From contig CANJEJ010000002.1 in NCBI GenBank assembly GCA_947473325.1, positions 29,359 through 93,358 of the forward strand: a stretch of DNA of 64,000 nucleotides, written 5' to 3'. The notes beneath the pieces were generated by a model. The model was not told the origin of the DNA, made no database searches, and worked only from the letters and a program-made list of their open reading frames with translations. A program made the translations under genes and the position numbers. The DNA comes from Alphaproteobacteria bacterium (GTDB lineage: Bacteria > Pseudomonadota > Alphaproteobacteria > SHVP01). This document shows positions 6,873-48,112 of the stretch, piece by piece (within the stretch, counting starts at the first letter, position 1; each line of letters opens with the position of its first letter).

Positions 6873-7268
6873 CTAGAGGGGACGGTGATCCGTCCCCTCG
6901 CCGAAGGTGACGGCGAGCAGCGTGCCGGGTATGCGGACCTTGCCAGTGTGCCAGGTGTTGCGCGGCACGATGGTGCTTTCGCCCTCGTTCAGCGCCACTT
7001 CGCGCCGCGTCGATCCCTCGTCCAGGATCAGCGTCATCGCGCCCTTCAGCATGATCAGGATTTCCTCGCCCTTGGGATGGCGCTCCCAGTTGGCCCAGTC
7101 TTCGGCCTGGGGAAAGGCCGTCATCAGCCAGCCGCCGATCTCGCGCGTGCCCGCCATCACCTCGGGCCAGAAGGATTCCGTTACCGGAATCGCCGTGGCG
7201 GCATTGCCGTCGATGTTGATGTAGGTGGTCGTGGGATTGTAGGCGGGCGCGGGCTTGGCTTTGGCCAT
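6873..7268 (-). CDS. cupin-domain protein
   Basis: 131 aa, compact beta-barrel cupin-like sequence. Assigned by composition and size only. Confidence 0.6.
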   Translation of the reverse strand: MAKAKPAPAYNPTTTYINIDGNAATAIPVTESFWPEVMAGTREIGGWLMTAFPQAEDWANWERHPKGEEILIMLKGAMTLILDEGSTRREVALNEGESTIVPRNTWHTGKVRIPGTLLAVTFGEGTDHRPL

Positions 7269-22213: not shown

Positions 22214-22393
22214 GGCTCTGCTCGTGTGACGGCGTGCCGCAGGGGGGCTGGCCGGGCAGTATAGCGAAACTGATGGCCGATGGGCCGGAATACCGGACCG
22301 GAGCCCGCGACTTGTGCCGCAGGCCTTGCCATCGGGGCAAGCGGCGATGCACCCTTTCTCCACGTTTTCCCCGGTATCAGCGAGGACCCGACC

Positions 22394-23515
22394 ATGTCCG
22401 GCCAGACCCAGCACGCCATGTTGCCCGATGCGAGCCATGATGAAGGAGCGCGGCAGGAGTTTTCCGTCACGCTGGCCGGCCATGTCGCCCGCAATGTCCA
22501 GGGCGGCACCCGCAAGATTTATGACACCAAGGTGGAGCCCGCCTTCCGCCGCAAGCAGAACCGCAAGCCCAACCGGCTCGAGGTGCGCCGCGCCCTGCTG
22601 GAGGAGCCCTACTACCAGATGTGGTCGTCGCTGAAGCGCACCACGCAGGAAATCCTCTTCGATTCGGTGGGCGAAAGCGTGGAACGGCAGCTGCCGGCGC
22701 TGATCAAGCGGGCCAAGCCATCGGGCCGGCGCAAGGGGTCGCTCACGCTCGATCCCGCGGTGAAGGTGCCGACCTATCTGTCCGCCGTCGATATCCACTG
22801 CATGCCCGGCAACTATCACGGCGAGATCGCCGCCGATGACGTCTATGCGGGCGCGCTGTTCGACCGGGGCATCTATCTCTATGGCCTCGGTGGCCTCGGC
22901 CCCGACAATGACGACATGGGGCGCAGCATCTCGCACTGGCTGAAGCGCAACCATCCCGGGTTCAAGCCGAAGCGCATCCTCGACATGGGCTGCTCGGCCG
23001 GCACCAACACGGTGGCCTGGACGCGGACCTATCCGGGCGCTGCGGTGCATGCGATCGACGTGGCGGCGCCGATGTTGCGCTATGCCCATGCGCGCGCCGA
23101 GGCCTATGGCGCGCCGATCCATTTCAGCCAGCAGAATGCCGAGAAGACGAACTTCCCGTCCGGGCATTTCGATCTCGTCTATTCGCACATCCTGACGCAT
23201 GAGACGGCGACGACCGCCTATCACAACATCATCAGGGAATGCTTCCGCCTGCTGAAGCCGGGCGGGCTGATGATCCACCAGGAAACGCAGTGGGCGACGA
23301 AGGACGAACCCTTCAACCAGGCGACGCTCGACTGGGAAACCCACTACAACGCCGAGCCCTTCAAGACGAAGCTCGACACCCTCAACCTGCAGGCCATTGC
23401 CGAGCAGGCAGGATTCAAAGCGAAGAACGTGTTCTTCCAGACGGTGCCGAGCGAACAGGCCGGCACGAAATACTATCGCGGCCAGTGGAACCTGTTCGGG
23501 GCGTGGAAGAAGTAG
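22394..23515 (+). CDS. class I SAM-dependent methyltransferase with ~170-aa N-terminal extension (paralog 1 of 3)
   Basis: ORF 22280..23515 trimmed to Met 39. ILDMGCSAGTNT motif I. Shares VDIHCMPGNYH and IHFSQQNAEKT motifs with 23560..24702 and 35483..36625. Confidence 0.75.
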   Translation: MSGQTQHAMLPDASHDEGARQEFSVTLAGHVARNVQGGTRKIYDTKVEPAFRRKQNRKPNRLEVRRALLEEPYYQMWSSLKRTTQEILFDSVGESVERQLPALIKRAKPSGRRKGSLTLDPAVKVPTYLSAVDIHCMPGNYHGEIAADDVYAGALFDRGIYLYGLGGLGPDNDDMGRSISHWLKRNHPGFKPKRILDMGCSAGTNTVAWTRTYPGAAVHAIDVAAPMLRYAHARAEAYGAPIHFSQQNAEKTNFPSGHFDLVYSHILTHETATTAYHNIIRECFRLLKPGGLMIHQETQWATKDEPFNQATLDWETHYNAEPFKTKLDTLNLQAIAEQAGFKAKNVFFQTVPSEQAGTKYYRGQWNLFGAWKK

Positions 23516-23559: not shown

Positions 23560-24702
23560 TTACTTCACCGCACCATTCACATAGAGCGAATCGGCATAGG
23601 TCTTCGGCGCCGGGCCGTTGTCAGAGATCGTCAGGTCCGCATTCATCGTCGCCAACATCGGCGTCTGCGGGAAGGACTTCGCCTTGGCGAAGCCGCTTTC
23701 CACCGCCACCGACTGCAGCTCCAGCTCATGCATCGTCGTCATGAAGGGTTCGGCGTTGAACTTGGTGCCCCAGCGGTGCCAGGCCGCGTCGAACTCGTCT
23801 TTCGCGTAATACTGGCGCGATTCACAATGCGCCATCACACCGCCGGGACGCAGCAGGCGCTTCGCCTCGCGGAATATGTTGCGCAGGGCCTTGCCTGACG
23901 TCTCGTGCAGGATGATCACCGACAGCACGAGGTCGAAATGCCCGTCAGGGAAGTCGGTCTTCTCGGCATTCTGCTGGCTGAAATGGATCGGCACCCCAGC
24001 TTCCTCGGCGCGCACATGGCCCCAGCGCAGGCAGGGGGCGGCGACGTCGATGGCATGCACCTCGGCATCCGGGAAGACCTGGGCGATGCCGAAGGTGGAA
24101 TGGCCCACGGTGCAGCCCATGTCGAGAATGCGCTTCGGCTTCAGGTCAGGGAAGTTGCGCCTGACGAATTCGGCGAGGCAGGTGCCGACCTCGTCGTTGT
24201 TCCTGCCCTTGTAGGCGTGGCTTGTGATTGTGCGGTCATAGAGCGCGCCGGCATAGACGTCGTCGTCCGTCAGCTCGGTGTGGTAGTTGCCCGGCATGCA
24301 GTGGATATCGACCGCCGTCAGGTAGGCTGGCGCAGCGACCGCCGGGTTCAGGCGCAGCGATCCCGTGGTCTTGCCACGCGCCGTCCGGCGCGCCGTCTCG
24401 ATCAGGTCGGGCAACTGGCGTTCGATGACGCCGCCGGCCACCTCATACATGTCTTCCTGGGCAATGCGGCGCAGCGCGCTGCGCATGGCATAGGGCGCTG
24501 TGCTTTCCCACAGCGTCTGCAGCTCCCAGCGATCCGGCGCGCGGCCGTACTTCTTCTCGAAGGCCGGTTTCGTCGTCCGGTCATAGACCTGCCGGTGCTG
24601 CACCATCAGCGGCCCGCTGACAAACTTGCGCAGCATGGCAGAGGCACTTTCGCGCGCCCTTTCATCATGGGTGGCTGAAAACAGCGGGGTAATGGCGGCC
24701 AT
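23560..24702 (-). CDS. class I SAM-dependent methyltransferase (paralog 2 of 3)
   Basis: ORF 23560..24831 trimmed to Met 44 (MAAITPLFSATHDE...). ILDMGCTVGHST motif and other conserved blocks shared with paralogs 1 and 3. Confidence 0.75.
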   Translation of the reverse strand: MAAITPLFSATHDERARESASAMLRKFVSGPLMVQHRQVYDRTTKPAFEKKYGRAPDRWELQTLWESTAPYAMRSALRRIAQEDMYEVAGGVIERQLPDLIETARRTARGKTTGSLRLNPAVAAPAYLTAVDIHCMPGNYHTELTDDDVYAGALYDRTITSHAYKGRNNDEVGTCLAEFVRRNFPDLKPKRILDMGCTVGHSTFGIAQVFPDAEVHAIDVAAPCLRWGHVRAEEAGVPIHFSQQNAEKTDFPDGHFDLVLSVIILHETSGKALRNIFREAKRLLRPGGVMAHCESRQYYAKDEFDAAWHRWGTKFNAEPFMTTMHELELQSVAVESGFAKAKSFPQTPMLATMNADLTISDNGPAPKTYADSLYVNGAVK

Positions 24703-24842
24703 GGCAAAACACCAGAATGATGTGGGGTATTGGTTCCCAGTATGGAACAAACGGGCGGCGGATTGAACCGCCTCGCAATCCTTTGCGCACGCGCCGCCGG
24801 TCGCTACCATGCCGGTCCATTCCCGCCGCACAAGGTTCTGCC

Positions 24843-35482: not shown

Positions 35483-36625
35483 ATGCCTGTCCATGCCACG
35501 CATCCCATGTTTCCCGACGCCAACCATGACGAGCAGGCGCGGCAGGATTTCATCCGCCTCTTCAAGCTGTCGGTGCAGCGCGACATCGGCACCGGCAACA
35601 AGCGGCTCTACGAGGCCAAGGTGAAGCCCGACTTCGCCCGCCGCACCGGCCGCGCGCCGAAGTCGCGGCGCGAGGTGCGCCAGGCGATGCAGGCGGAACC
35701 CTATACCCAGATGTGGAGCGCGCTGCTGCGCACCTCGCAGGAAATGCTCTACGACACGGTCGGGCCGTCGATCGAACGCCAGTTGCCCGACCTCATCAGC
35801 AAGGCGAAAGCCTATGGCGACCGCCACGGCACGCTGTCGCTCGATCCGTCGGTGGCCGTGCCGCCCTACCACGCCGCGGTCAACATTCACTGCAAGCCAG
35901 GCGGCTACCACACCGAGCTGACGCAGGACGACCTGTTCGCCGGCGCCGAATATGACCGCACCGTGCACATGTACCTGATGGGCGCGATGGGACCGAACAA
36001 CGACGACCTCGGCCGTTCCGCCGCGCTATGGGTGAAGCAGCAGTATCCGCACCTGAAGGTACGCAAGGTCCTCGACATGGGTTGCACCATCGGCCATTCG
36101 ACGCTGGCCTGGTGCGACGTGTTCCCGGACGCCGAGATTCACGCCATCGACGTCGCCGCGCCCTGTCTGCGCTATGCCCATGCCCGGGCCGAGGCGATGG
36201 GCAAGCCCGCGCATTTCCACCAGATGAACGCCGAGAAGACGGCATTCGAAGCGGGCAGCTTCGATGTCGTCGTCTCGCACCTGATGATGCACGAAACCTC
36301 GTCCCAGGCGCTGCCGCGAATCTTCAAGGAGTGCCACCGCCTGCTGAAGCCGGGCGGCGTGATGCTGCATGTCGATGCGCGCAACGTGACGGGCGAGCCT
36401 TTCGACCAGTATCAGCAGGAATGGGACGCGCATTACAACAACGAGCCCTTCTTCGGCACGCTGCATGACACCGACCTGCAAAAGCTGTCGCGCGACGCGG
36501 GCTTCGCCAGGGAGAAGGTCTTCGAGCTCTGGATCCCGTCGCATTACAAGCCGCGATCCGGGACCGAACATCACATCAACGCGGCGATGAAGGGCGATTA
36601 CTTCATGTCGGGCGCGCAGAAGTAA
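35483..36625 (+). CDS. class I SAM-dependent methyltransferase (paralog 3 of 3)
   Basis: 380 aa. VLDMGCTIGHST motif. Same conserved blocks as 22394..23515 and 23560..24702. Confidence 0.75.
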   Translation: MPVHATHPMFPDANHDEQARQDFIRLFKLSVQRDIGTGNKRLYEAKVKPDFARRTGRAPKSRREVRQAMQAEPYTQMWSALLRTSQEMLYDTVGPSIERQLPDLISKAKAYGDRHGTLSLDPSVAVPPYHAAVNIHCKPGGYHTELTQDDLFAGAEYDRTVHMYLMGAMGPNNDDLGRSAALWVKQQYPHLKVRKVLDMGCTIGHSTLAWCDVFPDAEIHAIDVAAPCLRYAHARAEAMGKPAHFHQMNAEKTAFEAGSFDVVVSHLMMHETSSQALPRIFKECHRLLKPGGVMLHVDARNVTGEPFDQYQQEWDAHYNNEPFFGTLHDTDLQKLSRDAGFAREKVFELWIPSHYKPRSGTEHHINAAMKGDYFMSGAQK

Positions 36626-36687: not shown

Positions 36688-37515
36688 ATGCATGACGTCC
36701 TCGCGCACGGCGCGCGCATTCCCGCCATCGGCCTTGGCACCTTCCGGCTCAAGGACGATCACGCGCGCCAGATGGTGGAACACGCCCTCCGCCACGGCTA
36801 TCGCCATGTCGACACCGCGCAGATGTATGGCAATGAAGCGGAGGTCGGCGACGGCATCGCCGCCGCGGGCGTACCGCGCGATTCGTTCTTCGTCACGACC
36901 AAGGTGTGGCCGGACAATTTTGCCGAGGGCACGCTGCAGAATTCGGTCGAGGAGAGTCTGAGGAAGCTGCGCCTGTCTGCCGTCGATCTCGTGCTGCTGC
37001 ACTGGCCGCGCTTCGACCGGCCGATGAAGGAAACGCTGAAGGCGCTCAACCAGGTCAAGCAGCGCGGCCTTGCCCGCCACATCGGCGTCAGCAACTTCAA
37101 CGTCGCGCTGCTGCGCGAGGCCTGGTCGCTGACGGATGAGCCGCTCGTCTGCAACCAGGTCGAGTATCATCCCTACCTCGACCAGGCACCGGTGCTGAAA
37201 GAGGTGCGGGCGCGCGGCATGGCGCTCACCGCCTATCAGCCGCTGTCGCTCGGCAAGGTGTTCGAGGATGATGTGCTGGTCGGGATCGCGAAGAAACATG
37301 GCAAGACAGCGGGGCAGGTGACGTTGCGCTGGCTGATCGACCAGCCCTCGGTTGCCGCCATTCCCAAGACCGGCACGCCGGCCCGGGCGGAGGAAAACCT
37401 CGCCCTCGACTTCACTCTCTCGCCGCAGGAGCAGCAGGCCATCACGGCCCTGCATCGCCCCAACGGACGCAACCTCAACCCCGCCCGCCTGGCGCCCGCA
37501 TGGGACAAGGCCTGA
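36688..37515 (+). CDS. aldo/keto reductase (2,5-diketo-D-gluconate-reductase-like)
   Basis: 275 aa. AKR catalytic tetrad context (D-Y-K-H), IGVSNF motif. Confidence 0.85.
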   Translation: MHDVLAHGARIPAIGLGTFRLKDDHARQMVEHALRHGYRHVDTAQMYGNEAEVGDGIAAAGVPRDSFFVTTKVWPDNFAEGTLQNSVEESLRKLRLSAVDLVLLHWPRFDRPMKETLKALNQVKQRGLARHIGVSNFNVALLREAWSLTDEPLVCNQVEYHPYLDQAPVLKEVRARGMALTAYQPLSLGKVFEDDVLVGIAKKHGKTAGQVTLRWLIDQPSVAAIPKTGTPARAEENLALDFTLSPQEQQAITALHRPNGRNLNPARLAPAWDKA

Positions 37516-37523
37516 AGGATGCC

Positions 37524-39206
37524 ATGACGAATGATCCGATGAAATGGTGGCGCACGCCCAAGGGCGTGCAGCGCGCCTATGCCGACAGCCGCTTCGGCCA
37601 GTTGCATTACGCCATCGCGCGGCCGGCCAAGGCGACGGCGCTGCCGCTCGTCTGCCTGCATGCCAGTCCGTCGTCCTGGCGCAGCTGGTTCAGCGTGATT
37701 CCGGAAATGGCGAGTGATCGCATCGTCGTGGCGCCGGACACGCCGGGCCATGGCGATTCCGACCTGCCGCCGTCGCAACCCGGCATCGAGGACTACGCCG
37801 CTGCGATCGGCGAGGCGCTCGACCAGATCGGCATCCGGCGCTTTGATGCCATCGGCAACCACACCGGGTCGAAGGTCGCGGTCGAACTCGCGCGCCAGCG
37901 CCCCGACCAGGTGCGCCGCCTCGTCCTGCTCTCGGCGCCGGTCTATTCCGACGAGGAATTGAAGGCGATCAAGGCGAAATATATGGAAGTGCCGCTGCAG
38001 GAAGACGGCGGTCACATGATCAAGCGCTGGTCATCGCTGATGAACGCGATGGGCAAGGTGCTGCCCATCGACATCGTGCAGCGCTCCTACAGCGAATCCC
38101 TCCGCGGCGGCATGGAATACGAATGGGGCCATCATGCGGCCTTCGCCTACCACCACGCCGACAACCTGCCGCACCTGCCCCACCGCATCACCGTGCTGAA
38201 TCCGAAAGACGAGATTCACGAGGCGACGAAGCGGGCGAAGAAATACCTGAAGAACGGCGAGGTGATGACGCTCGATGCGGGCCACGAGCTCCTCTATCTC
38301 GAGCCGGTGCGCTTTGGCCGCATGCTGCGCCAGCACCTCGACGGACCGGCACAGGATGTCGAGCCCGGCACGGTCACGCCGAAGCCGGCGCCACCGGCGC
38401 CGAAGATCACGCCGAAACTCGCCCGCAGGCACTATATCGACGGTGAACACGGCCAGATTCACTACCGGCGCACATCGCCGCTCAGCCCGACGCAAGTCCC
38501 GCTGCTCTGCCTGCATGCAAGCCCGCAGTCGAGCCTCAATTACGCCCAGCTGATGGAGGCCATCGGCACCGACCGCATCGTCGTCGCGCCCGACACGCCG
38601 GGCTATGGCAATTCGGAATGGCCAAAGACGGCACCGGCGATCGACGACTTCGCCCGCGCCATGATCCGCCTGGTGGCTGATCTCGGCCTAAAGACTGTCG
38701 ATGTCATGGGCTTCCACACCGGCTCGCTTACGGCGACCGAGATCGCGCGGCAGAAGCCGGGTCTCGTGCGCAAGATTGTCATGTATTCGGCACCGCTTTT
38801 CGCGGAAGAAGAACTTGCGTCTTTCCGTGCTGCCTATGCGCCGCTCGTGCTGCAGCCGGACGGGTCGCACACCGTCTACCGCTGGCGCCGCATGTGGAAA
38901 TGGAAGGACCCGAAGTTCCCGATCGAGGGCTATCACGTCATCAACGCGGAGCCCTTCCGCGCCGGGCCGAATTCCTGGTGGGGGCACAACGCGGCCTTCA
39001 ACTATCCCTTCCGCGAACGCCTGCCGCTCGTCGACAAGCCGATCCTCGTCCTCAACCCGAACGACGACCTCGTCGATCATTCGCGCAATGCCATGCCGCT
39101 GATGAAGCAGGGCCGCATCCACGAGCTGCCCGACTATGGCCATGGCATGATGGACGTGCACACGCCGGAAATCGCCAAAGTCATGCGGGGTTTCCTCGAT
39201 GGCTGA
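37524..39206 (+). CDS. tandem-duplicated alpha/beta-hydrolase-fold protein with non-canonical nucleophile motifs (G-N-H-T-G-S and G-F-H-T-G-S), family members 2 and 3 fused
   Basis: ORF 37500..39206 trimmed to Met 9 after an AAGGA SD. Two homologous ~280-aa halves, each with GQ[LI]HY...LCLHASP...APDTPG[HY]G. Confidence 0.7.
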   Translation: MTNDPMKWWRTPKGVQRAYADSRFGQLHYAIARPAKATALPLVCLHASPSSWRSWFSVIPEMASDRIVVAPDTPGHGDSDLPPSQPGIEDYAAAIGEALDQIGIRRFDAIGNHTGSKVAVELARQRPDQVRRLVLLSAPVYSDEELKAIKAKYMEVPLQEDGGHMIKRWSSLMNAMGKVLPIDIVQRSYSESLRGGMEYEWGHHAAFAYHHADNLPHLPHRITVLNPKDEIHEATKRAKKYLKNGEVMTLDAGHELLYLEPVRFGRMLRQHLDGPAQDVEPGTVTPKPAPPAPKITPKLARRHYIDGEHGQIHYRRTSPLSPTQVPLLCLHASPQSSLNYAQLMEAIGTDRIVVAPDTPGYGNSEWPKTAPAIDDFARAMIRLVADLGLKTVDVMGFHTGSLTATEIARQKPGLVRKIVMYSAPLFAEEELASFRAAYAPLVLQPDGSHTVYRWRRMWKWKDPKFPIEGYHVINAEPFRAGPNSWWGHNAAFNYPFRERLPLVDKPILVLNPNDDLVDHSRNAMPLMKQGRIHELPDYGHGMMDVHTPEIAKVMRGFLDG

Positions 39207-40263
39207 GATGCAGTACCGCCCGCTCGGCAGAAGCGGCCTGCGCGTGTCGCCGATCTGCCTTGGCGTGCTGCAGTTCGGCGCCGCCGCCACGCCGGCCGAC
39301 GCGGCGGCGATGATCGACAGCGCCCGCGCTGCCGGCGTCAACTTCCTCGACGTCGCCAATGTCTATGCGCTGGGCGAGGCGGAGCGCGCGCTCGGGCCGC
39401 TGATCGCGCGCGACCGCGATAGCTGGGTGCTGGCGACCAAGGCGGGCATCGCGATGGGGCCGGGGCCGCATCGCGGCGGCCTGTCGCGCAAGCATTTGTT
39501 CGACGCACTTGACGATTCGCTGCGCCGCCTCGGCACCGACTATGTCGATATCTTCTACCTGCATGTGCCGGACGAAGAGACACCGCTCGCGGAAACGCTG
39601 CGCGCGGTCGACGACATCATCCGCTCCGGCAAGGCGCGCTATTTCGGCATCAGCAACTACCGCGCCTTCGAGATTGCCGACATCGCGCTGACCTGCGACC
39701 GCATGGGCATCGCGCGGCCCGTCGTGTGCCAGATGCTCTACAACCTTGTCGACCGCGAGGCGGAGCGCGAGATCATTCCCGCCTGCCACCAGTTCGGCAT
39801 CGCGGTCGCGCCTTACAGCCCGCTGGCGCGTGGCGTGCTCACCGGCAAATACACGGTCAACGCGCCGCTGCCCGAAGGCTCGCGCGCGGCCCGCAAGGAC
39901 CGCCGCCTGATCGAGGCGGAGCTGCGCGACGAATCGATCCTGTTCGCCGCGCAGATGGCGGAACGGGCAAAGGCGCGCGGCCTCACCCCGTCGCAATTCG
40001 CCATCGCCTGGATGCTGCGCAACCGGTTGCTCACCAGCGTCGTCACCGGGCCGCGCACGCTCGCCCAGTGGGAAGACAATCTGTCGGCCGCGACCGTCAC
40101 GCTCACGGCCGAGGACGAAGCCTTTGTGAACGCCATCGTGCCGCCAGGCTGGGGCTCCACCCCCCAGTTCAACGATCCCCTGTGGCCGCCGCTCGGCCGC
40201 GAAGCCGCGGCGGGGGAGCGAATCCGCCCGGCCAAGGCACTGCCGCCGGGTCCCAAGGCCTGA
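39199..40263 (+). CDS. aldo/keto reductase (Tas/YajO-like AKR)
   Basis: 354 aa. AKR motifs. Start overlaps the upstream stop by 8 nt. Confidence 0.85.
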   Translation: MAEMQYRPLGRSGLRVSPICLGVLQFGAAATPADAAAMIDSARAAGVNFLDVANVYALGEAERALGPLIARDRDSWVLATKAGIAMGPGPHRGGLSRKHLFDALDDSLRRLGTDYVDIFYLHVPDEETPLAETLRAVDDIIRSGKARYFGISNYRAFEIADIALTCDRMGIARPVVCQMLYNLVDREAEREIIPACHQFGIAVAPYSPLARGVLTGKYTVNAPLPEGSRAARKDRRLIEAELRDESILFAAQMAERAKARGLTPSQFAIAWMLRNRLLTSVVTGPRTLAQWEDNLSAATVTLTAEDEAFVNAIVPPGWGSTPQFNDPLWPPLGREAAAGERIRPAKALPPGPKA

Positions 40264-40391
40264 CTTTTCGCCCTCGGGCTGTCCCAGGTCTGCACAAAAA
40301 CGCACCGCTGGACTGCGCGACAGCCCCGTGGAGGGGCGGATTTGACCCAGTTTGCTGCACGTGCGAAGAAAAAATTGACGGGTCTATAAGT

Positions 40392-40405
40392 CGCAGATTT
40401 CTGCG
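40392..40405. promoter_or_regulatory. lux/tra-box-like inverted repeat CGCAGA-TT-TCTGCG, ~155 nt upstream of luxR-family gene
   Basis: Read directly. Resembles the core of the tra-box (TGCAGATCTGCA). Further TCTGCG repeats lie at ~40455-40490. Confidence 0.3.
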
Positions 40406-40559
40406 GTTTTCCACAGGCTGAGCCATGCATTCGGCTCCGATCAGGGCCTCTGTTCTGCGAATCTGCATATCACTTCTGCGACCTTTCCGAATTCGCCGTG
40501 GCGGCCCCCCTCCCTAGACTGCAGGCGTTGCAAAGGATGCACGGCCTGGGGAGCCAAGC

Positions 40560-41288
40560 ATGTTCACGGAAGCAGCGGAATTCATGGAAGTGGCGCAGCG
40601 CCCGGGCAAGCCCGACGCGGTGCGGGATCGCTTCGCCAAGGCGGTCCGGGCGCTCGGCTTCGACGCCTTCGGCTATTTCGGCATGTACGCGCCGTTCGGG
40701 GCCGAAACCTCGCCCTTCATGGTGTCGACCTTCCCGCAGTCCTGGCAGGCCCGCTACGTCGAGCACCAGTACCACCGCCATGATCCGGTGGTGGCGGAGG
40801 CGATCCGCAGCGTGATCCCGCTGCGCTGGGATGAGCTTTCCCAGCGCCGCCCGCTCCGCCCCGAAGAGGTCGCGGTCCTGGTCGAGGCGCGCGAGCATGG
40901 CCTCGTTCACGGCTTCACCGTGCCTGTGCATGGCCTCGGCGGCGAACTGGGTGTCACCAGCGTCGTCGCTGGCCCCGGCACCCGCGACTTCGACCGCTTG
41001 GTCGAGGCACACCGCCACACAATCCACCTGATGGCCGTCTACCTGCACAACGCGTTGCGCGAGCAGGCCGCGGCAATGCCAACGCGCGAGGCGCGCCTGT
41101 CGCCGCGCGAGATCGAATGCATTGCATGGACGGCACAGGGCAAGACGACCTGGGAAGTGTCGCAGATCCTGCGCCTGTCAGAAGCGACGGTAAATTTCTA
41201 CCTGCGCAACGCCATGCGGAAGCTCGGCGTGCACAGCAAGGCGCACGCGGTCGCCAAGACCCTTGTACTCGGGCTGATCCACGCATGA
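40560..41288 (+). CDS. LuxR-family transcriptional regulator with N-terminal autoinducer (AHL)-binding domain; orphan, no luxI in the window
   Basis: 242 aa. Autoinducer-binding domain residues conserved (W in QSWQARY, Y in HQYH, D-P in HRHDPVV, W in PLRWDE, G). C-terminal LuxR HTH (LSPREIECIAWTAQGKTTWEVSQIL). Confidence 0.85.
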   Translation: MFTEAAEFMEVAQRPGKPDAVRDRFAKAVRALGFDAFGYFGMYAPFGAETSPFMVSTFPQSWQARYVEHQYHRHDPVVAEAIRSVIPLRWDELSQRRPLRPEEVAVLVEAREHGLVHGFTVPVHGLGGELGVTSVVAGPGTRDFDRLVEAHRHTIHLMAVYLHNALREQAAAMPTREARLSPREIECIAWTAQGKTTWEVSQILRLSEATVNFYLRNAMRKLGVHSKAHAVAKTLVLGLIHA

Positions 41289-41485
41289 CGCCCGTTCACT
41301 CCACTTCACCGATTGAGGGCCGGGGTGATCGCTTCGGCGATCTCGCCCCAGCTGCGTTCCGTGCCGCACCCGGAACGCAGATGTCGAAGGCTGCCGGCGC
41401 CCATCGCCGTCAGCCGGTCCCTACCTCCTCAGGGACTCCTCGGCGACCTGCCTGGCGGGAACTCCGTGCCCTCAACCCCGCATAT

Positions 41486-41521
41486 CCCGTCACGATCGCG
41501 CAGTCACACAGCTGTGACGGG
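41486..41521. promoter_or_regulatory. nested inverted repeat CCCGTCAC...GTGACGGG enclosing palindrome CACAGCTGTG, ~45 nt upstream of a small ORF
   Basis: Read directly. Candidate operator, function unknown. Confidence 0.3.
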
Positions 41522-41565
41522 AATAGCTTTCCGCAACCCCGCGTTTTCAATGGGAGATGACTGAC

Positions 41566-41739
41566 ATGGCGACGATGACGTCTCAAGGGCCAAACCCCTG
41601 GCTTCTCCTGAAGCGCGCCTTCGGCCTTGCGCCCAAGCCCGCGCCGGCCACACGGGCCGCGCCGCGCCAGGCGGCCTACGACGACTACTGGGCGCTGCAG
41701 AATCGCAAAGCCTCGCGTCCGGCACCGATCAAGAAGTAG
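41566..41739 (+). CDS. small basic Pro/Ala-rich peptide ORF (57 aa), hypothetical
   Basis: GGGAGA SD 8 nt upstream of the ATG. Sits directly upstream of the pentapeptide-repeat gene. No homology recognised. Confidence 0.3.
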   Translation: MATMTSQGPNPWLLLKRAFGLAPKPAPATRAAPRQAAYDDYWALQNRKASRPAPIKK

Positions 41740-41778
41740 CCGCGCGGCACCGAAACCCTCGCCCCTCGGGAGGAGGCG

Positions 41779-42900
41779 ATGACCATGACAGTGGGCCTAA
41801 ACAGCGGGACGAATGCCATGACCCCGCACCAGCTGATCGACCTGCTGCACAGCCACTCGCGCTATGTTGCGCGGCGGGATGGCGGCAAGCGCGCCGAGCT
41901 GGTGCGCCAGGATCTCTCCGGCCTGCGACTCAAGGGCGTGGTGCTGGAAGGGGCGCGGCTTGCCGGCGCCAACCTGTCCGGCTGCGACCTGACCGGGGCG
42001 AACCTGCGCGGCGCCGACCTGTTCGGGGCGCGCCTCGATGGTGCGACGCTAGCGGGCGCCGACATGGAGCGTGCCGACCTGCGCGGCGCCTCGCTGCAGG
42101 AAGCCAGCCTGCGTTACGCCAACCTGAAGGAAGTCGACCTGCGCTCGGGCATGCTGCTGCACCATGGCGGCGATGCGGCGATGACACGCGCGATGGCGCA
42201 GCGGCCGACCCACGCCGACTTGCGCGGCACCGACCTGCAGCGCGCCAACCTGACCGCGGCGCGGCTGAAAGACGCCAACCTGACTGGCAGCAACCTGCGA
42301 GGCGCCACCGTCACGCATGCCCGTTTCGAAGGCGCCAACCTGCGCGGCGCGGTGCTGGCGGATGTGAACCTGCCGTCGGCCAACTTCACCGGCGCACGCT
42401 ACAGCGCCGCTTCGGCCGAGCTGCCCTTTGACCTGCAGGTCATCCTGCGCGACCACGCGCTGTGGGCGGACTCAGCGGGGAGCCGCGGCGTGCGCGCCCT
42501 GCTGCGCGGCGTCGACCTGCGCGGCCTCAACCTCGCCTTCGCCTATCTCAACGGCGCCGACCTGCTGGGCGCCGACCTGCGCAACTGCAACCTGGCGGAC
42601 AGCGAGTTCGTACTCGCCAACCTGATGGAAGCGCGGCTCGACAAGGCGAACCTGCGCAAGGCCGACCTCTCGGGCGCCTGCCTGCGGGCGGCGACGCTGA
42701 CGGGCGCCTGCCTGGAACGCGCACGCTTCGCCACGGTCGACGTCAAGGACGCCAGGGGCCAGCCCACGGGGCGCAACCGCGCCACCGACCTGCGCGGCGC
42801 CGACCTGACCGATGCCGACCTGTCGCAGACCGACCTGTCGGCGGCCATCCCGGTCCATGGCGCCCCCGAACCGGAAACCGACGACGTGCCGCGCAACTAG
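41779..42900 (+). CDS. pentapeptide-repeat protein (two repeat domains)
   Basis: 373 aa. Long runs of A(D/N)LxG pentapeptides (ANLSGCDLTGANLRGADLFGARLDGATLAGADM...). Paralog of 56750..58021. Confidence 0.8.
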   Translation: MTMTVGLNSGTNAMTPHQLIDLLHSHSRYVARRDGGKRAELVRQDLSGLRLKGVVLEGARLAGANLSGCDLTGANLRGADLFGARLDGATLAGADMERADLRGASLQEASLRYANLKEVDLRSGMLLHHGGDAAMTRAMAQRPTHADLRGTDLQRANLTAARLKDANLTGSNLRGATVTHARFEGANLRGAVLADVNLPSANFTGARYSAASAELPFDLQVILRDHALWADSAGSRGVRALLRGVDLRGLNLAFAYLNGADLLGADLRNCNLADSEFVLANLMEARLDKANLRKADLSGACLRAATLTGACLERARFATVDVKDARGQPTGRNRATDLRGADLTDADLSQTDLSAAIPVHGAPEPETDDVPRN

Positions 42901-42985: not shown

Positions 42986-43417
42986 ATGGCAGGGTATTTC
43001 GAAACCCAGCGCGGCGTCGTGCAGGCGTGGGAATGTGACCACATGGGTCACCTCAACACGACCTTCTACATGCAGAAATTCAGCGAGGCGGGGGCGCAGC
43101 TCACCGCCCGCATCGGGCTGACGCGCCTCTACATGGACGAAAGCGGCGGCGGCATGGCCGCGCTCGAACACATCATCAAGTACCGCCGCGAGCTGCGCGC
43201 GGGCGATGTTACGCTGGTCGAAAGCGGCATGCTCGAGGTTGGCAACAAGACGATCCGCTTCCTCCACCGCCTGCTCAACGCGACGACGCTGGAGCTGGCG
43301 GCGACCATGGAAGGCGTCGCCTGCTATTTCGATCGCAACACGCGAAAATCCGAACCGCTGCCCGACTTCATGCGCGCGAAGTCGCTGGCCCTCATTGTCG
43401 AACGCAAGGATGACTGA
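42986..43417 (+). CDS. hotdog-fold acyl-CoA thioesterase (4HBT/YbgC-like)
   Basis: ORF 42812..43417 trimmed to Met 59 (MAGYFETQRGVVQAWECDHMGHLNTTFYM...), the typical 4HBT motif. Confidence 0.75.
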   Translation: MAGYFETQRGVVQAWECDHMGHLNTTFYMQKFSEAGAQLTARIGLTRLYMDESGGGMAALEHIIKYRRELRAGDVTLVESGMLEVGNKTIRFLHRLLNATTLELAATMEGVACYFDRNTRKSEPLPDFMRAKSLALIVERKDD

Positions 43418-43418
43418 C

Positions 43419-44201
43419 ATGCGTTGTGGTTACGTCGATCTTCCCGCCGGCCAGGTGCATTACCGCCGCGCCGGTGATTCCGGCCCCTGGGTGTTCCTGT
43501 TCCACCAGACTCCGCTGTCGTCGCGCATGTATGAACCGACGCTGCCCGAACTGGGCAAGACCTGTCGCGCGGTCGCCTTCGACACGCCGGGCTATGGCGG
43601 TTCGGCGCCGCCCGCCGGGCCGACCACGGTGAACGATTATGCGACGCGCCTGCTTGCGGCGATCGACACTTTCACCACCGGAAACTTCGTGTTGGTCGGC
43701 GTCGCCACCGGTTGCGCCGTGTCGCTGGAAATCGCCCGCCTCGCCGGCAAGCGGGTAACCCATGCCGTCTTCAGCGGCGCGCCGCTGCTCACCCCCGCAC
43801 GCATGGCGCATTTCCGCGCCCAGCTCGGCGAGCCCGCCGTCAAGGAAGACGGCAGCCACCTGCTGCAGGTGTGGAAAAGCCGCCGCGGCAACTGGGGTGA
43901 CGAAGCCCCCATGGACCAGATGATGATGGCGGCGTCGGAAACCATCCGGGTCTACGACCGGCTGAACTGGGGCCTGCTCGCTGTGACGCGCTATGACGTG
44001 CGCGCGGCGCTTGAGGCCCTGACCTGTCCGGTCCTGTTCATCTCGGCGGGCTTCGACAAGCTCGCGCCCGAGAATGAGGCGGCGGCCAGCGTCGTGCGCC
44101 ACAGCGTGCAGAAAGTCATCCCCGGTGTGCCGCCGCAGCTCTGCTGGACCGCGCCACAAGCTTACGCGCGGGAAATCAGCTCTTTCATTGGCGCTGGTTG
44201 A
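43419..44201 (+). CDS. alpha/beta-hydrolase-fold protein with non-canonical nucleophile motif (G-V-A-T-G-C), family member 4
   Basis: ORF 43206..44201 trimmed to Met 72 (an alternative ATG at 43410 overlaps the thioesterase stop). GQVHYRR and FLFHQTP motifs as in the other family members. Confidence 0.65.
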   Translation: MRCGYVDLPAGQVHYRRAGDSGPWVFLFHQTPLSSRMYEPTLPELGKTCRAVAFDTPGYGGSAPPAGPTTVNDYATRLLAAIDTFTTGNFVLVGVATGCAVSLEIARLAGKRVTHAVFSGAPLLTPARMAHFRAQLGEPAVKEDGSHLLQVWKSRRGNWGDEAPMDQMMMAASETIRVYDRLNWGLLAVTRYDVRAALEALTCPVLFISAGFDKLAPENEAAASVVRHSVQKVIPGVPPQLCWTAPQAYAREISSFIGAG

Positions 44202-44296: not shown

Positions 44297-46567
44297 ATGG
44301 CAATCCGGTTGACGCGTTGGGTGGGGGCGGCGGTCGCTGCCCTGGGCTTGTCGGCCTGTGGGGTGCTCGCCCCATTGCCGCGTTCGACCACGGTCGAGGA
44401 ACGCCTGGCCATGCTGCCCACCACCGGCCTGCCGCTCAAGGGCAGGGTGACGGTGCGCTGGAACGACCAGATGGTCCCCTTCGTCGAAGCCGAGCATGAC
44501 GAGGACCTGGCGGTCGCGCTGGGCGTCATTCACGCGCATCTCCGGCTTGGCCAGATGGAAGTGGGCCGCCGCGCCGCGCGCGGGCGCATCGCCGAGATGG
44601 GTGGGCCGCTCGCCACCGACATCGACCACGCGTTGCGCATCATCGACTTCGGCAAGGCGACGCCGCAGGTTGTGGCGGCCATGCCGGCCGACAGCCGCGC
44701 CTGGCTCGACGGCTTCGTGCGCGGCCTCAACCACTACGTCGCCACGACCAGGGAGCTGCCGCACGAATTCGCCGTGCTCGGGCTGGAACGCGAGCCGTGG
44801 ACGGCGGAAGACGTGCTGACGGTGGGGCGCCTCGCATCGAGCGACGTCAACTGGTTCGTCTGGTTCGCCCTGCTGAAGCAGCGCAACCGTCCCGACTGGC
44901 CGCAGGTGTGGGAACGCCTGGTGGGCGAGGGGACGATGTCTGTGCCAAGTCACGCCGCCGGCCAGACGCGCGACTTCGCGGCGCTGCAGGACCTGCTGGT
45001 TGGCATGAGCCGGTCGGGCAGCAACTCGGTCGCCGTCACGGCACAGAAGAGCACGTCGGGCGGCGCGCTGATCGCCAGCGATCCGCATCTCGGCGTCACG
45101 CTGCCGAACCTGTGGCTGGTCGCGGGATACAAATCGCCGTCCTATCACGCGGTCGGGCTGATGCCCGCCGGCCTGCCGTTTCTCGCGATTGGCCGCAATG
45201 AACGCATCGCCTGGGGCGGCACCAATTTGCGCGCCGCATCGAGCGACCTGTTCGACGTCAGCAGCCTGCCCGCCGACCAGTTCCGCCTGCGCGCGGAGAA
45301 GATCAGGGTGCGCTTCTGGTTCGACCGCACGGTGCAGGTGCGCGAGACGAAGCTGGGCCCGGTCATTTCCGACGCGCCGATGATCGACATGGGCGGCGCC
45401 GGGCCGCTCGCCATCCGCTGGATCGGCCACAGCCCGACGGACGAGTTGAACGCCATGCTGCGCCTCAACCGTGCCGGCAACTGGGACGAGTTCCGTGCCG
45501 CACTGGACGGCTTCGCCATCTCGGCGCAGAACATGATCTACGCGGATATCGACGGCAACATCGGCCATGTCATGGCGGCGCATCTGCCGAAGCGGCCTAA
45601 CGCAGCGCCGGCCGATCTCGTCACGCCCTTTGCGGATGCCGGCCCGTGGGACGAAATCGTCACGGGCGCCAGCCTGCCGGTCACCTTCAATCCTCCGGGC
45701 GGTGTCATCGCCTCGGCGAACAACCGCGGCGCGGAAGCGGATGTGCCGATCGGCTATTTCTTCTCGCCCAACGATCGCGTGCTGCGGCTTGCCAGCGTGC
45801 TGGAGAAGCGCGAACGCGTCAGCGCAGCCGAACTAAGCGCCATCCAGCGCGACACGTTCCAGATTTCATCGCTCGACCTGCGCGATGTGCTGGTCGCGCG
45901 GGCCCGCCGCGAGATGCTTGCCGATGCCCTGCCCGCTGACCAGCGCACGCTGTTCGATCGCATGGCCGGCTGGGATGGGTACTACAGCGTGGCGTCGCCC
46001 GGCGCCCCGGCGTTTGAAATCTTCCTGTTCCATTTCGTGGCCGCCTTCTTCGACGCGCAACAGAAGTCGGTCTATGGCTCTACGGGGCGTCCCTTCAGCT
46101 TCTACCAGGCGGATATCGAAGCCGCGCCGGCGGATCGCTTCGCCGCCGCTTTCCGGGCGGCGCTGGCAGCGGCTGCGCCGCGCGCCACCGAGGTGCAGGC
46201 CTGGGGCGACATGCACCGCCTGTCGCTCGGCCACCCGCTCGGCTTCATCCCGGTTCTGGGCCGGCGCTACCAGATCGGTGGCGATATCCCGACAGGCGGC
46301 AGCTCCAACACCGTGATGAAGACGGCGCATGACCTGACCGACCAGCGCCACTTCACGCGCTATGGCTCCAACGCGCGCCATGTCTCCGACATGGCCGATC
46401 CGGACGCCAATTTCTTCACCCTGCTCGGCGGGCAGGACGGCTGGTTCAACAGCGCCGCCTTCAACGACCAGTCGGTGCTGTGGCGCGACGGCGCCCATGT
46501 CCAGGTGCCGATGCGACCCGAATCGGTACGCGCCAGCTTCCGCCACGTCACCGTGCTGTCGCCGTAG
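44297..46567 (+). CDS. penicillin-amidase/acylase family Ntn-hydrolase lipoprotein (AHL-acylase-like, PvdQ/QuiP/AiiD group)
   Basis: ORF 44282..46567 trimmed to Met 6. Lipobox LSAC signal. Conserved G-S-N-S-V-A-V autoproteolytic site with the Ser nucleophile of the beta subunit. ~756 aa, typical of the family. Confidence 0.85.
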   Translation: MAIRLTRWVGAAVAALGLSACGVLAPLPRSTTVEERLAMLPTTGLPLKGRVTVRWNDQMVPFVEAEHDEDLAVALGVIHAHLRLGQMEVGRRAARGRIAEMGGPLATDIDHALRIIDFGKATPQVVAAMPADSRAWLDGFVRGLNHYVATTRELPHEFAVLGLEREPWTAEDVLTVGRLASSDVNWFVWFALLKQRNRPDWPQVWERLVGEGTMSVPSHAAGQTRDFAALQDLLVGMSRSGSNSVAVTAQKSTSGGALIASDPHLGVTLPNLWLVAGYKSPSYHAVGLMPAGLPFLAIGRNERIAWGGTNLRAASSDLFDVSSLPADQFRLRAEKIRVRFWFDRTVQVRETKLGPVISDAPMIDMGGAGPLAIRWIGHSPTDELNAMLRLNRAGNWDEFRAALDGFAISAQNMIYADIDGNIGHVMAAHLPKRPNAAPADLVTPFADAGPWDEIVTGASLPVTFNPPGGVIASANNRGAEADVPIGYFFSPNDRVLRLASVLEKRERVSAAELSAIQRDTFQISSLDLRDVLVARARREMLADALPADQRTLFDRMAGWDGYYSVASPGAPAFEIFLFHFVAAFFDAQQKSVYGSTGRPFSFYQADIEAAPADRFAAAFRAALAAAAPRATEVQAWGDMHRLSLGHPLGFIPVLGRRYQIGGDIPTGGSSNTVMKTAHDLTDQRHFTRYGSNARHVSDMADPDANFFTLLGGQDGWFNSAAFNDQSVLWRDGAHVQVPMRPESVRASFRHVTVLSP

Positions 46568-46573
46568 CGCCGG

Positions 46574-48112
46574 ATGCTCGACGCCACGCCGCTCTTCCGC
46601 CTTTACGCGAAGTGGCGGCTCGCCCGGATCGACCGTCTTGATCCCATCGCGGCGCAGGAACGCACGCTGTCCCATCTGCTCCGCCTCGCGGCGAACACAG
46701 CCTTCGGCCAGGCCCATGACTTTGCGCATCTGCGCACGGTCGGCGAATACCAGCGCGCAGTGCCGCTGCGGCGCTATGACGACTTCTGGCGGGACTGGTG
46801 GCAACCGCGCTTCCCTCAGCTTACGGACTGCACCTGGCCGGGCACGATTCCCTATTTTGCGCTGTCCTCCGGCACCAGCACCGGCATCACCAAATACATC
46901 CCGCTGTCGCGTGCGATGATGCGCAGCAACCAGCGCGCCGGCATCGACCTGCTCGCGCATTTCATGCGCGACCAGCCCGACAGCGGTCTGTTCGCCGGGC
47001 GCAGCTTCATGCTGGGCGGCAGCACCGACGTGGTGCCGCTGGCGCCCGGCATCTTCAGCGGCGATCTCAGCGGCATCGCGGTGAAGGAAATGCCCCGCTG
47101 GGCCCGCTCGCGCAGCTTTCCGCCGGCCGATCTCGCCCTGATCGCCGACTGGGAGGAAAAGGTGGCGAAGCTCGCGCCCGCCGCGCTCAAGGCCGACCTG
47201 CGCCTCATCGGCGGCACACCGAGCTGGCTGCTGATCTTCTTCGACCGCCTCGCCGCGCTTCGGCCGGACAGCCAGGGCCAGCTCGGCGCGTTGTTTCCCG
47301 ACCTCGAACTGCTCATTCATGGCGGCGTCAACTTCGCGCCCTACCGCCAGCGCTTTGCCGAACTGCTCGCCGGCAGCCAGGCAGAGACGCGCGAGGTCTA
47401 TCCCGCCAGCGAAGGCTTCATCGCCTTTGCCGACCGGCCGGGCGAGACGGGCCTGCGCCTGACCCTCGACACCGGCCTGTTCTACGAATTCGTGCCGCTC
47501 GCCGAACTCGACAGCCCCAACCCGACCCGCCACTGGCTGGCGACGGTGGAAACGGGCATCGACTACGCCATCGTCGTCACCACCTGCGCCGGGCTGTGGT
47601 CCTATGTCGTCGGCGACACGGTGCGCTTCGTCGAGACGCGGCCGCCGCGCCTGATCGTTACCGGCCGCACCTCCTACATGCTGTCGGCCTTTGGCGAGCA
47701 TGTGATCGACCTCGAGGTCGAGCAGGCGGTGGCGGTGGCGGCCAGCGCGATTGGCGCGGCAGTGACCGATTTCTCGGTCGGCGCGCTGTTCCCCGCCAAG
47801 GCAGGCGAACTCGGCGGCCATCTATATGTGGTGGAGTTTGCCGGTGGGGTACCGGATGACGTGGCGCAGGCCCGTTTCACCGCCGCGCTGGATGCCAGCC
47901 TGCAAGCCGCCAACGACGACTATCGCGCCCACCGCAGTGGCGGTTTCGGGCTGCGCGCGCCGACGTTGCTGCCGATGCTGCCGGGCGGCTTCGCCGCCTG
48001 GATGAAGCAGCGGGGCAAGCTTGGCGGCCAGAACAAGGTGCCGCGCATCGTCGCCGGCGCGGCGCTGTTTGCCGACTTGCGCGCCTTCGCCGCGCGCTTC
48101 CAGCAAGGCTGA
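46574..48112 (+). CDS. GH3-family acyl-acid amido synthetase (adenylate-forming, auxin-responsive GH3-like)
   Basis: 512 aa. SSGTSTGITKYIP adenylation motif and YxSSE-type motifs characteristic of GH3 proteins. Begins 7 nt after the acylase stop. Confidence 0.8.
   Translation: MLDATPLFRLYAKWRLARIDRLDPIAAQERTLSHLLRLAANTAFGQAHDFAHLRTVGEYQRAVPLRRYDDFWRDWWQPRFPQLTDCTWPGTIPYFALSSGTSTGITKYIPLSRAMMRSNQRAGIDLLAHFMRDQPDSGLFAGRSFMLGGSTDVVPLAPGIFSGDLSGIAVKEMPRWARSRSFPPADLALIADWEEKVAKLAPAALKADLRLIGGTPSWLLIFFDRLAALRPDSQGQLGALFPDLELLIHGGVNFAPYRQRFAELLAGSQAETREVYPASEGFIAFADRPGETGLRLTLDTGLFYEFVPLAELDSPNPTRHWLATVETGIDYAIVVTTCAGLWSYVVGDTVRFVETRPPRLIVTGRTSYMLSAFGEHVIDLEVEQAVAVAASAIGAAVTDFSVGALFPAKAGELGGHLYVVEFAGGVPDDVAQARFTAALDASLQAANDDYRAHRSGGFGLRAPTLLPMLPGGFAAWMKQRGKLGGQNKVPRIVAGAALFADLRAFAARFQQG

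Follow-up and report, generated by a model that had tools for sequence, protein, structure and literature searches.

The window analysed here, a stretch of 64,000 nucleotides (64 kb) from an uncultured member of the Alphaproteobacteria, carries a luxR-type gene that is followed on the same strand by the apparent remnant of a luxI-type acyl-homoserine lactone (AHL) synthase gene and then by a small conserved gene, orf57 (Table 1). Genes for a pentapeptide-repeat protein, a thioesterase, an alpha/beta hydrolase, an acylase and a GH3-type amido synthetase lie further downstream. The window forms part of a 156.7-kb metagenome scaffold (ENA ERZ28612979, scaffold_678), and the closest genome is an uncultured Alphaproteobacteria metagenome-assembled genome (MAG) whose corresponding locus, L007, encodes a LuxR protein with 91% identity. 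Related loci are designated below by an L followed by a number.

The luxR gene and the adjoining luxI relic

The predicted LuxR protein matches the Autoind_bind domain (PF03472) over residues ~19–166 (9.7e-36, 123 bits against a cutoff of 23) and, at its C-terminal end, the GerE/LuxR helix-turn-helix (HTH) domain (PF00196) over residues 179–231 (8.7e-20, 70.6 bits against a cutoff of 23.5), and thus possesses both of the domains that characterize the quorum-sensing LuxR family. Its best solved structural relative is LasR (4e-29), followed by QscR, RhlR, CviR, TraR and SdiA. None of the NCBIfam equivalog models reached its threshold with this protein, the models for SdiA, PA1136-type proteins and TraR remaining far under their cutoffs. 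When the protein was aligned with LasR and within a 16-sequence family alignment, the six conserved residues listed for the autoinducer-binding domain (ABD) of TraR (W57, Y61, D70, P71, W85 and G113; PMC4338825) were all found to be kept, as W62, Y66, D75, P76, W90 and G118. The first five are invariant in the 16 family members, and G118 is nearly so. Both the Pfam domains and these six residues bear out the initial sequence-only reading of this DNA, which had described a LuxR protein with intact AHL-binding residues.

In the HTH domain, the triad formed in TraR by E178, L182 and G188 was counted as present: E184 and G194 are kept, and the position of L182 is occupied by I188, a conservative change at a site where the relatives carry Leu. 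In the ligand domain, F58 sits at the position of LasR Y56; in LasR and in TraR, the Tyr found there contacts the acyl carbonyl through a hydrogen bond. Phe is found at this position in almost the whole subfamily, and since it is also present in every LuxI-paired member, F58 is a family trait and not a mark of decay. Judged by its domains and residues, the luxR open reading frame is a genuine LuxR-type AHL receptor gene.

No intact synthase gene accompanies this receptor. A Pfam check of every called gene of the window, based on the precomputed matches of the contigs and on direct scans, revealed neither an Autoind_synth domain (PF00765) nor an LPAAT/HdtS-type domain (PF01553), and no intact synthase was detected in the 64-kb window or in the ~1 kb of scaffold that lies beyond it; this was the scope of the search, the ~92 kb of scaffold upstream and other parts of the genome lying outside it. 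When the LuxI proteins of L015, L016 and L017 were used as tblastn queries, the sole significant match in the window was the segment listed in Table 1 as the luxI relic, directly after luxR (E values from 1.5e-8 to 3e-7). Its translation exhibits 39–45% identity to LuxI residues ~51–108 of ~202, with a decayed version of the hallmark GCWRLLPTTGPYLLKD motif, and Smith-Waterman comparison of the relic peptides against shuffled sequences yielded z = 15–18. The relic begins 49 nt past the luxR stop codon and is truncated at both ends, lacking the first ~50 and the last ~95 luxI codons and retaining ~58 of ~202. Its reading frame is broken, as revealed by a 2-nt indel between lineages (window versus L018). 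A relic is present at the equivalent place in all the close relatives (L007, L018 and L020–L022).

The sequence-only reading had stated that the window holds no LuxI- or HdtS-type synthase, which is right as far as an intact gene is concerned but overlooked this relic. Its designation of luxR as an orphan, or solo, can be kept in the sense that no intact synthase adjoins the gene, which is itself under purifying selection (see below), with the amendment that the locus is not free of synthase sequence. A solo has no functional luxI next to it and no cognate AHL synthase elsewhere in its genome; luxR agrees with the first feature, the relic alone adjoining it, and with the second within the 64-kb window and the ~1 kb beyond.

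The arrangement from which the relic derives is preserved in more distant members of the subfamily. In L015, L016 and L017 (48–50% LuxR identity), a gene for an intact LuxI of 202–263 amino acids follows luxR on the same strand after a spacer of 115–130 nt, and in L008 (38% LuxR identity) luxI likewise follows luxR on the same strand. The spacers of L015–L017 contain lux boxes of the form ACCT-N12-AGGT, located ~40 nt past the luxR stop codon (ACCTCTCAATGTTGAGAGGT, ACCTAACAATACTATGAGGT and ACCTAACAAAACTAAGAGGT). The HTH domains of these luxI-paired relatives are very similar to that of the window LuxR, and their recognition-helix region is nearly identical to it. The window locus therefore resembles the tandems of L015–L017 in subfamily and in luxR orientation, with the relic standing where their luxI stands; it differs from them in that they retain an intact LuxI and a lux box, whereas the window lacks the box and most of luxI. 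With only 49 nt left between the luxR stop codon and the relic, the window has lost the ancestral spacer and the lux box that it would have contained. The single near-perfect lux-box-like sequence of the window (ACCTTGCCAGTGTGCCAGGT, positions 6937–6956) lies inside a cupin gene and probably arose by chance.

Deletions that date from the common ancestor of this clade of freshwater Alphaproteobacteria took away the spacer, and with it the lux box, along with ~50 codons from the start of luxI and ~95 from its end; a later 2-nt indel disrupted the residual luxI frame. As far as the sequence can tell, luxR is thus a solo through the decay of its own synthase gene.

The LuxR subfamily is small, comprising 17 database proteins at E ≤ 1e-10. 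Beyond the window's own sequence, the LuxR identities to database clusters and to the MAG are 96%, 91% and 85%, and then drop to ~53%. A metagenome scan with the LuxR protein revealed no relatives, and in a plasmid collection the matches to luxR were confined to the HTH-coding part (Burkholderia and Shinella). For four orthologues, all of them bearing the relic, dN/dS was calculated by the Nei-Gojobori method. With dS of 0.28–0.80, dN/dS was 0.06–0.16 for the whole gene, and omega was 0.10–0.14 for the ligand domain and 0.015–0.065 for the HTH domain. The luxI-paired luxR genes of L016 and L017 gave a dN/dS of 0.069. As omega in the solo clade is close to that of the paired genes, the constraint on luxR was not relaxed after the loss of luxI, and the protein is being retained with its ligand domain included. 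This purifying selection makes a signal-sensing solo a reasonable reading. The selection data are indifferent to the source of the signal, be it another species or an unlinked synthase of the same genome.

A further relative, L019 (1925–8831), encodes a LuxR protein with 47% identity and is also a solo, with IS21-, IS1595- and DDE_Tnp_1-type transposases on its flanks. A LuxI remnant was looked for next to its luxR gene and none was detected. This locus suggests a different route to the solo state.

The conserved block over the luxI relic

The relic is overlain by a conserved block (Table 1) whose p-distances to L020, L007 and L018 are 0.012, 0.067 and 0.151, respectively. In the same three comparisons, 17%, 41% and 57% of the sites differ in the spacer just 3' of the block, and 24%, 39% and 49% of the synonymous sites differ in luxR. 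The block evolves 3–14 times more slowly than its flanks and the luxR synonymous sites, and it is more conserved than luxR itself.

On the plus strand, the block is predicted to fold into a multi-branched RNA in which a 12-bp closing helix (TTGAGGGCCGGG...CCGTGCCCTCAA) surrounds five hairpins, and the limits of conservation coincide with this closing helix. Its minimum free energy (MFE) is −92 kcal/mol, with z = −4.99 against dinucleotide shuffles, none of the 200 shuffles being as good; on the minus strand, z is −1.97. The corresponding block of L018 reaches −101 kcal/mol (z = −6.09), whereas the homologous segments of intact luxI genes exhibit no such fold (z = +1.2 and +1.5). Variable columns account for 16 of the 120 paired positions and for 14 of the 46 unpaired ones (Fisher p = 0.014). 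Pairing is preserved on the plus strand at 10 of the 13 variable pairs, compared with 3 on the minus strand, and compensatory changes were observed at three pairs in five sequences.

Other explanations of the block were examined and rejected. It is not coding, given the 2-nt indel between lineages and the distribution of the variable sites over the codon phases (10/11/5, our own tally from the block alignment), which exhibits no clear periodicity. Nor is it a repeat of the miniature inverted-repeat transposable element (MITE) or repetitive extragenic palindromic (REP) type, a covariance model of the block having found no second copy in the window and 14 loci. A terminal-repeat search likewise revealed no more copies. 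The covariance model gave a weak match (E = 0.54) at the homologous place in the intact luxI of L016. A scan of positions 40000–42000 against Rfam 15 yielded no match at E ≤ 1, and a metagenome scan with a 20-mer of the relic returned two chance matches unrelated to the locus.

Stem-loops that stabilize transcripts from intercistronic positions or 3' untranslated regions are well known, such as REP elements and the hairpins of the Rhodobacter puf operon. The block resembles them in being large and stable, in lying between same-strand genes and in being devoid of a U-tract. It differs from them in being single-copy, in having conserved loops as well, and in deriving from coding sequence.

The region upstream of luxR and the genes downstream

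The ~190 nt that precede the luxR start codon are conserved and presumably contain the promoter and the leader, and the segment further upstream (40265–40354) could not be aligned. A consensus scan for sigma-70 promoters over positions 39900–42000 gave nothing, and the RNA fold of the luxR upstream region is not unusual (z = +0.5). In this region the sequence-only reading had pointed to a CGCAGA-TT-TCTGCG inverted repeat accompanied by further TCTGCG iterations. Both are present, the 6-2-6 core CGCAGATTTCTGCG occurring once in the window (40392–40405) and TCTGCG recurring at 40454 and 40475. The window contains 176 perfect 6+6 inverted repeats with a spacer of 0–4 nt. Because this amounts to 0.81 such repeats per 296 nt, and because 30% of the shuffles of the upstream region contain one, the palindrome alone provides no evidence: by itself it is no better than chance, and it is non-random only through comparison with the relatives.

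Such a comparison was made for the imperfect dyad to which the core belongs, TAAGTCGCAGA-TT-TCTGCGGTTTT in the window. The two arms match perfectly (11-2-11) in the sister clade (L018, L025 and L028), where the sequence reads AAAACCGCAGA-AA-TCTGCGGTTTT. Among members of the window's clade, the left arm has diverged along three separate lines, leaving 8, 8 and 7 matches of 11, and the right arm is invariant. The right arm and its T-rich flank are conserved as TCTGCGGTTTTCCACAGGC in most loci (Table 1), the L025 version carrying one change, at the last base (...CACAGGG). As RNA, the dyad would fold into a hairpin whose loop measures 4 nt, with UUUUCC following it, at an energy of −7.6 kcal/mol in the window, −7.5 to −9.8 kcal/mol in the window's clade and −14.3 kcal/mol (z about −6) in L018, L025 and L028. 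It is located 128 nt past the upstream aldo-keto reductase gene and ~160 nt before the luxR start codon, and a terminator consensus scan, which requires at least 5 U, did not call it. The dyad looks like a small A/T-flanked intrinsic terminator in its anatomy, and the extra constraint on its right half suggests a second role, for example as part of a promoter or an operator.

Two further TTCTGCG heptamers follow the dyad. Together with the copy at 40399–40405, they represent three of the eight TTCTGCG copies of the 64-kb window, gathered within 82 nt. The copy at 40453 is kept in most relatives and that at 40474 only in the close ones and in L025; L028 has lost both. A second strongly conserved upstream segment, CCCCCTCCCTAGACTGCAGGCGTTGCAAAGGATGC (40506–40540), contains an imperfect dyad around TTGCAA located 20–50 nt before the luxR start codon, and is altered in L028.

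The tra box recognized by TraR, ATGTGCAGATCTGCACAT, is an 18-bp dyad with abutting half-sites and outer ATGT/ACAT. The window dyad shares its dyad symmetry and the inner GCAGA/TCTGC. However, when written as AAGTCGCAGA-TT-TCTGCGGTTT, it contains 2 extra central bp and has outer AAGTC/GGTTT in place of ATGT/ACAT; moreover, its left arm is not conserved in its own clade. With half-sites 2 bp further apart and unlike outer bases, the dyad was rejected as a tra box, and the resemblance proposed in the sequence-only reading is limited to the inner positions. It is likewise unlike the family lux box, the ACCT-N12-AGGT sequence of relatives with nearly the same HTH. A role as terminator or insulator, or within the luxR promoter-operator, is more likely for this hairpin-forming dyad than one as a LuxR box of the tra type.

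Downstream of the relic comes orf57; no other intact gene separates it from luxR in any relative of the clade. Its product has the motif AAYDDYWAL and no Pfam match, and the gene exhibits in-frame indels and an omega of 0.17–0.40 in diverged pairs. The content between orf57 and the thioesterase gene varies: the window carries the pentapeptide-repeat gene only, L025 (1978–3997) a pentapeptide-repeat gene plus a gene for a 266-aa protein, and L020 (2407–4434) three genes without Pfam matches.

The acylase and GH3 genes, which the sequence-only reading had presented as candidate targets of LuxR, are located 3–5 kb and several genes downstream of luxR, with a 209-nt gap before the acylase gene. 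The GH3 gene starts 6 nt past the acylase gene, to which it is translationally coupled. The acylase possesses the N-terminal nucleophile (Ntn) hydrolase fold of the penicillin amidases (PF01804, 478 bits). Its best solved relative is a D-succinylase (2.8e-39), followed by penicillin G acylases, PvdQ not being among the matches, and its score on the PvdQ model, 18.4 bits against a cutoff of 950, does not identify it as an AHL acylase of the PvdQ/QuiP type. The GH3 protein scored 598.9 bits on the NCBIfam model NF052613 for OlsH, a lyso-ornithine-lipid synthetase, under the cutoff of 620; it is a close OlsH relative whose substrate may differ. Outside planctomycetes, enzymes of the OlsH type are believed to produce N-acyl amino acids of other kinds and to work with an alpha/beta-hydrolase-type partner (PMC12493201). 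Accompanied by such features, the acylase/GH3 module looks more like amino-lipid metabolism than AHL turnover. Taken as a group, the thioesterase, alpha/beta hydrolase, acylase and GH3 genes (acylase–GH3, 44411–48112) may constitute an alphaproteobacterial module for N-acyl amino acids or amino-lipids.

No motif was found to be common to the region upstream of luxR and the regions upstream of orf57, the thioesterase gene or the acylase gene. The order from luxR through orf57 and the pentapeptide-repeat gene to the acylase gene is kept in L025, and at such divergence the genes upstream of luxR are kept too. Because there is no shared motif, because gene order is kept generally at this divergence and because the intervening gene content is variable, control of the acylase/GH3 genes by LuxR is not supported; they are neighbours and at most possible targets, and all that ties them to luxR is a gene order shared by close relatives. 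A connection with quorum quenching through the acylase is equally unsupported and should not be propagated.

Elsewhere in the window, three paralogous class-I methyltransferases of 380–423 aa are encoded at 22280–23515 (+), 23560–24831 (−) and 35483–36625 (+), sharing a long N-terminal extension of ~190–230 aa that has no Pfam match. A 568-aa protein encoded at 37500–39206 contains two alpha/beta-hydrolase domains in tandem.

Table 1. Features of the luxR locus, in window coordinates
Feature	Position	Strand	Evidence
Conserved luxR upstream block, presumably promoter and leader	40373–40559	+	p-distance 0.05–0.21 to L020, L007 and L018
Imperfect dyad/hairpin	40387–40410	.	8/11 positions per arm match
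Right arm with T-rich flank	40400–40418	+	identical in 5/6 orthologous loci
Two further TTCTGCG heptamers	40453–40459, 40474–40480	+	
luxR ribosome-binding site (GGAG)	40550–40553		
luxR-type gene, 242 aa	40560–41288	+	Pfam domains, LasR alignment, family alignment, dN/dS
Conserved block over the relic, predicted multi-branched RNA	41313–41475	+	MFE, shuffles, p-distance
luxI relic (pseudogene fragment)	41338–41511	+	tblastn, Smith-Waterman against shuffles, shared by relatives
orf57, small conserved protein gene, 57 aa	41566–41739	+	called in all related contigs
Pentapeptide-repeat protein	41785–42900	+	
4HBT thioesterase	42986–43417	+	
Alpha/beta hydrolase	43419–44201	+	
Ntn 'penicillin amidase' acylase	44411–46567	+	
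GH3/OlsH-like amido synthetase	46574–48112	+	

Probable origin and possible roles of the solo receptor and the relic

We consider it probable that luxR encodes a functional AHL-type receptor that became a solo by decay of its own synthase gene. Ancestrally, luxR and luxI would have stood in tandem, separated by a spacer that carried a lux box, an arrangement that the nearest relatives have today. LuxR is predicted to have kept its ability to bind an AHL, which would come from neighbouring bacteria or from an unlinked synthase of its own genome, and the ligand-bound protein would then regulate the transcription of target genes that the sequence does not identify. Some observations weigh against this interpretation: the Pfam Autoind_synth profile gave no match to the relic peptides, which the LuxI proteins of the subfamily alone detect; a LuxR target site, for this family an 18–20 bp dyad at the target promoters, was not identified, no ACCT-N12-AGGT box being present in an intergenic position near luxR or the neighbour genes, where a box of another type may nevertheless lie; and the part of the genome inspected amounts only to 64 kb plus ~1 kb. 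This last point leaves room for an endogenous network in which LuxR is no eavesdropper and answers the AHL of an unlinked luxI in the same genome, as QscR answers the LasI signal. Purifying selection as strong as that on paired receptors would be compatible with such a network, and many proteobacteria have solos beside complete circuits (PMC4338825), but the inspected 65 kb contain no synthase and there is no positive evidence, and we regard it as rather unlikely. It is very improbable that the receptor has moved to a non-AHL ligand or works ligand-free, like plant-associated or re-purposed solos. Such a change would be favoured by F58, which stands where LasR and TraR have a Tyr bound through hydrogen to the acyl carbonyl, and by the Ile at the 'L182' position of the HTH domain. 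However, the LuxI-paired relatives also have F58, the ligand domain is still constrained (omega 0.10–0.14), and the six ABD residues are all kept, in contrast to the W57 and Y61 changes of plant-associated solos (PMC4338825). Also improbable is the model of the sequence-only reading, in which the solo LuxR would bind the upstream palindrome as a tra-box-like site and control the acylase/GH3 genes in response to foreign AHLs, combining eavesdropping with quorum quenching. The ancestry of the dyad (a perfect 11-2-11 palindrome in the sister clade), its inner GCAGA/TCTGC identical to the tra-box core, the three of eight window heptamers gathered upstream of luxR, the luxR-to-acylase gene order kept in L025 and the membership of the acylase in the Ntn family, which includes AHL acylases, could all be quoted in its favour. 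Yet the half-sites stand 2 bp further apart than in the tra box and have unlike outer positions, the left arm of the dyad has not been kept constant within the window's clade, the motif has no copy upstream of orf57, the thioesterase gene or the acylase gene, and relatives with a very similar HTH use ACCT-N12-AGGT, of which there is none nearby. Furthermore, the acylase, at 18 bits, stays far below the cutoff of 950 of the PvdQ model and has a D-succinylase as its best solved relative, and the OlsH-like GH3 protein, coupled to it, points to N-acyl amino acid lipid metabolism (PMC12493201).

As to the relic itself, we tentatively propose, at about even odds, that ~165 nt of the dead luxI may have found a new use as an RNA element with extensive, conserved structure, situated between luxR and the gene that follows and held under a constraint above that of luxR. 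Such an RNA would be placed in the luxR 3' region or in the luxR-orf57 spacer and could serve as a stabilizer or as a processing or regulatory element, possibly affecting the fate of the luxR mRNA or downstream expression. This proposal has to be set against the covariation analysis, in which the signal remained below column-shuffle significance (99 of 500 shuffles) with few and close sequences (4–5), and against the possibility that the block is conserved for a function at the level of DNA. Indeed, the block sits upstream of orf57, belongs to no Rfam family, and consists of GC-rich DNA, which folds well in silico; it might thus be no RNA element at all, but a site of DNA-level regulation of orf57 and later genes or an artefact of recent exchange between lineages. 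We find this unlikely. The conservation edges are those of the closing helix, the z values of −5 to −6 against dinucleotide shuffles are obtained on the plus strand only, and wobble-type changes preserve pairing on that strand only. In addition, no sigma-70 promoter consensus was found, and the divergence of the block tracks lineage distance (0.012, 0.067 and 0.151), which argues for constrained vertical descent and not for recent transfer.

LuxR solos that keep the ligand pocket are presumed to sense AHLs made elsewhere (PMC4338825, PMC10134790). The window LuxR resembles the solos SdiA, QscR, PpoR and BlxR in combining an Autoind_bind domain with an HTH domain, in retaining the six ABD residues and in having no adjacent functional synthase. 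Unlike SdiA-type solos, it belongs to a small uncharacterised subfamily, and its lost synthase is still visible as a relic; for SdiA, the work of Sabag-Daigle and Ahmer (2012), as reported in PMC10134790, inferred synthase loss from phylogeny only. A retained luxI fragment is also represented by tslI of Methylobacterium extorquens AM1, a truncated luxI homologue that controls AHL production and exopolysaccharide (Nieto Penalver et al. 2006, as described in PMC2680597 and PMC12502750). It is a loose precedent for a luxI fragment that has been kept and has a function; it is annotated as a gene, lies on a plasmid and belongs to a strain in which two luxI genes are intact. In contrast to tslI, the window relic offers no reading frame that could be used throughout the lineages, and what is conserved in it is a predicted RNA fold.

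Decay of the partner synthase is an ordinary route to the solo state, and as a LuxR solo the receptor is a familiar and only modestly interesting case; more deserving of follow-up is the luxI relic, which is unusually well conserved and has a strong predicted fold. Solos are common and their origin is usually inferred, but here a synthase relic stands beside a receptor under selection, so that the route from pair to solo is directly readable. The lineage concerned is an uncultured alphaproteobacterial one from fresh water, and its LuxR subfamily has hardly been sampled. Should the conserved fold of the relic be confirmed, this DNA would clearly exemplify how what is left of a gene can be put to new use as a non-coding RNA in a quorum-sensing locus, and would caution against treating such "intergenic" DNA as neutral.

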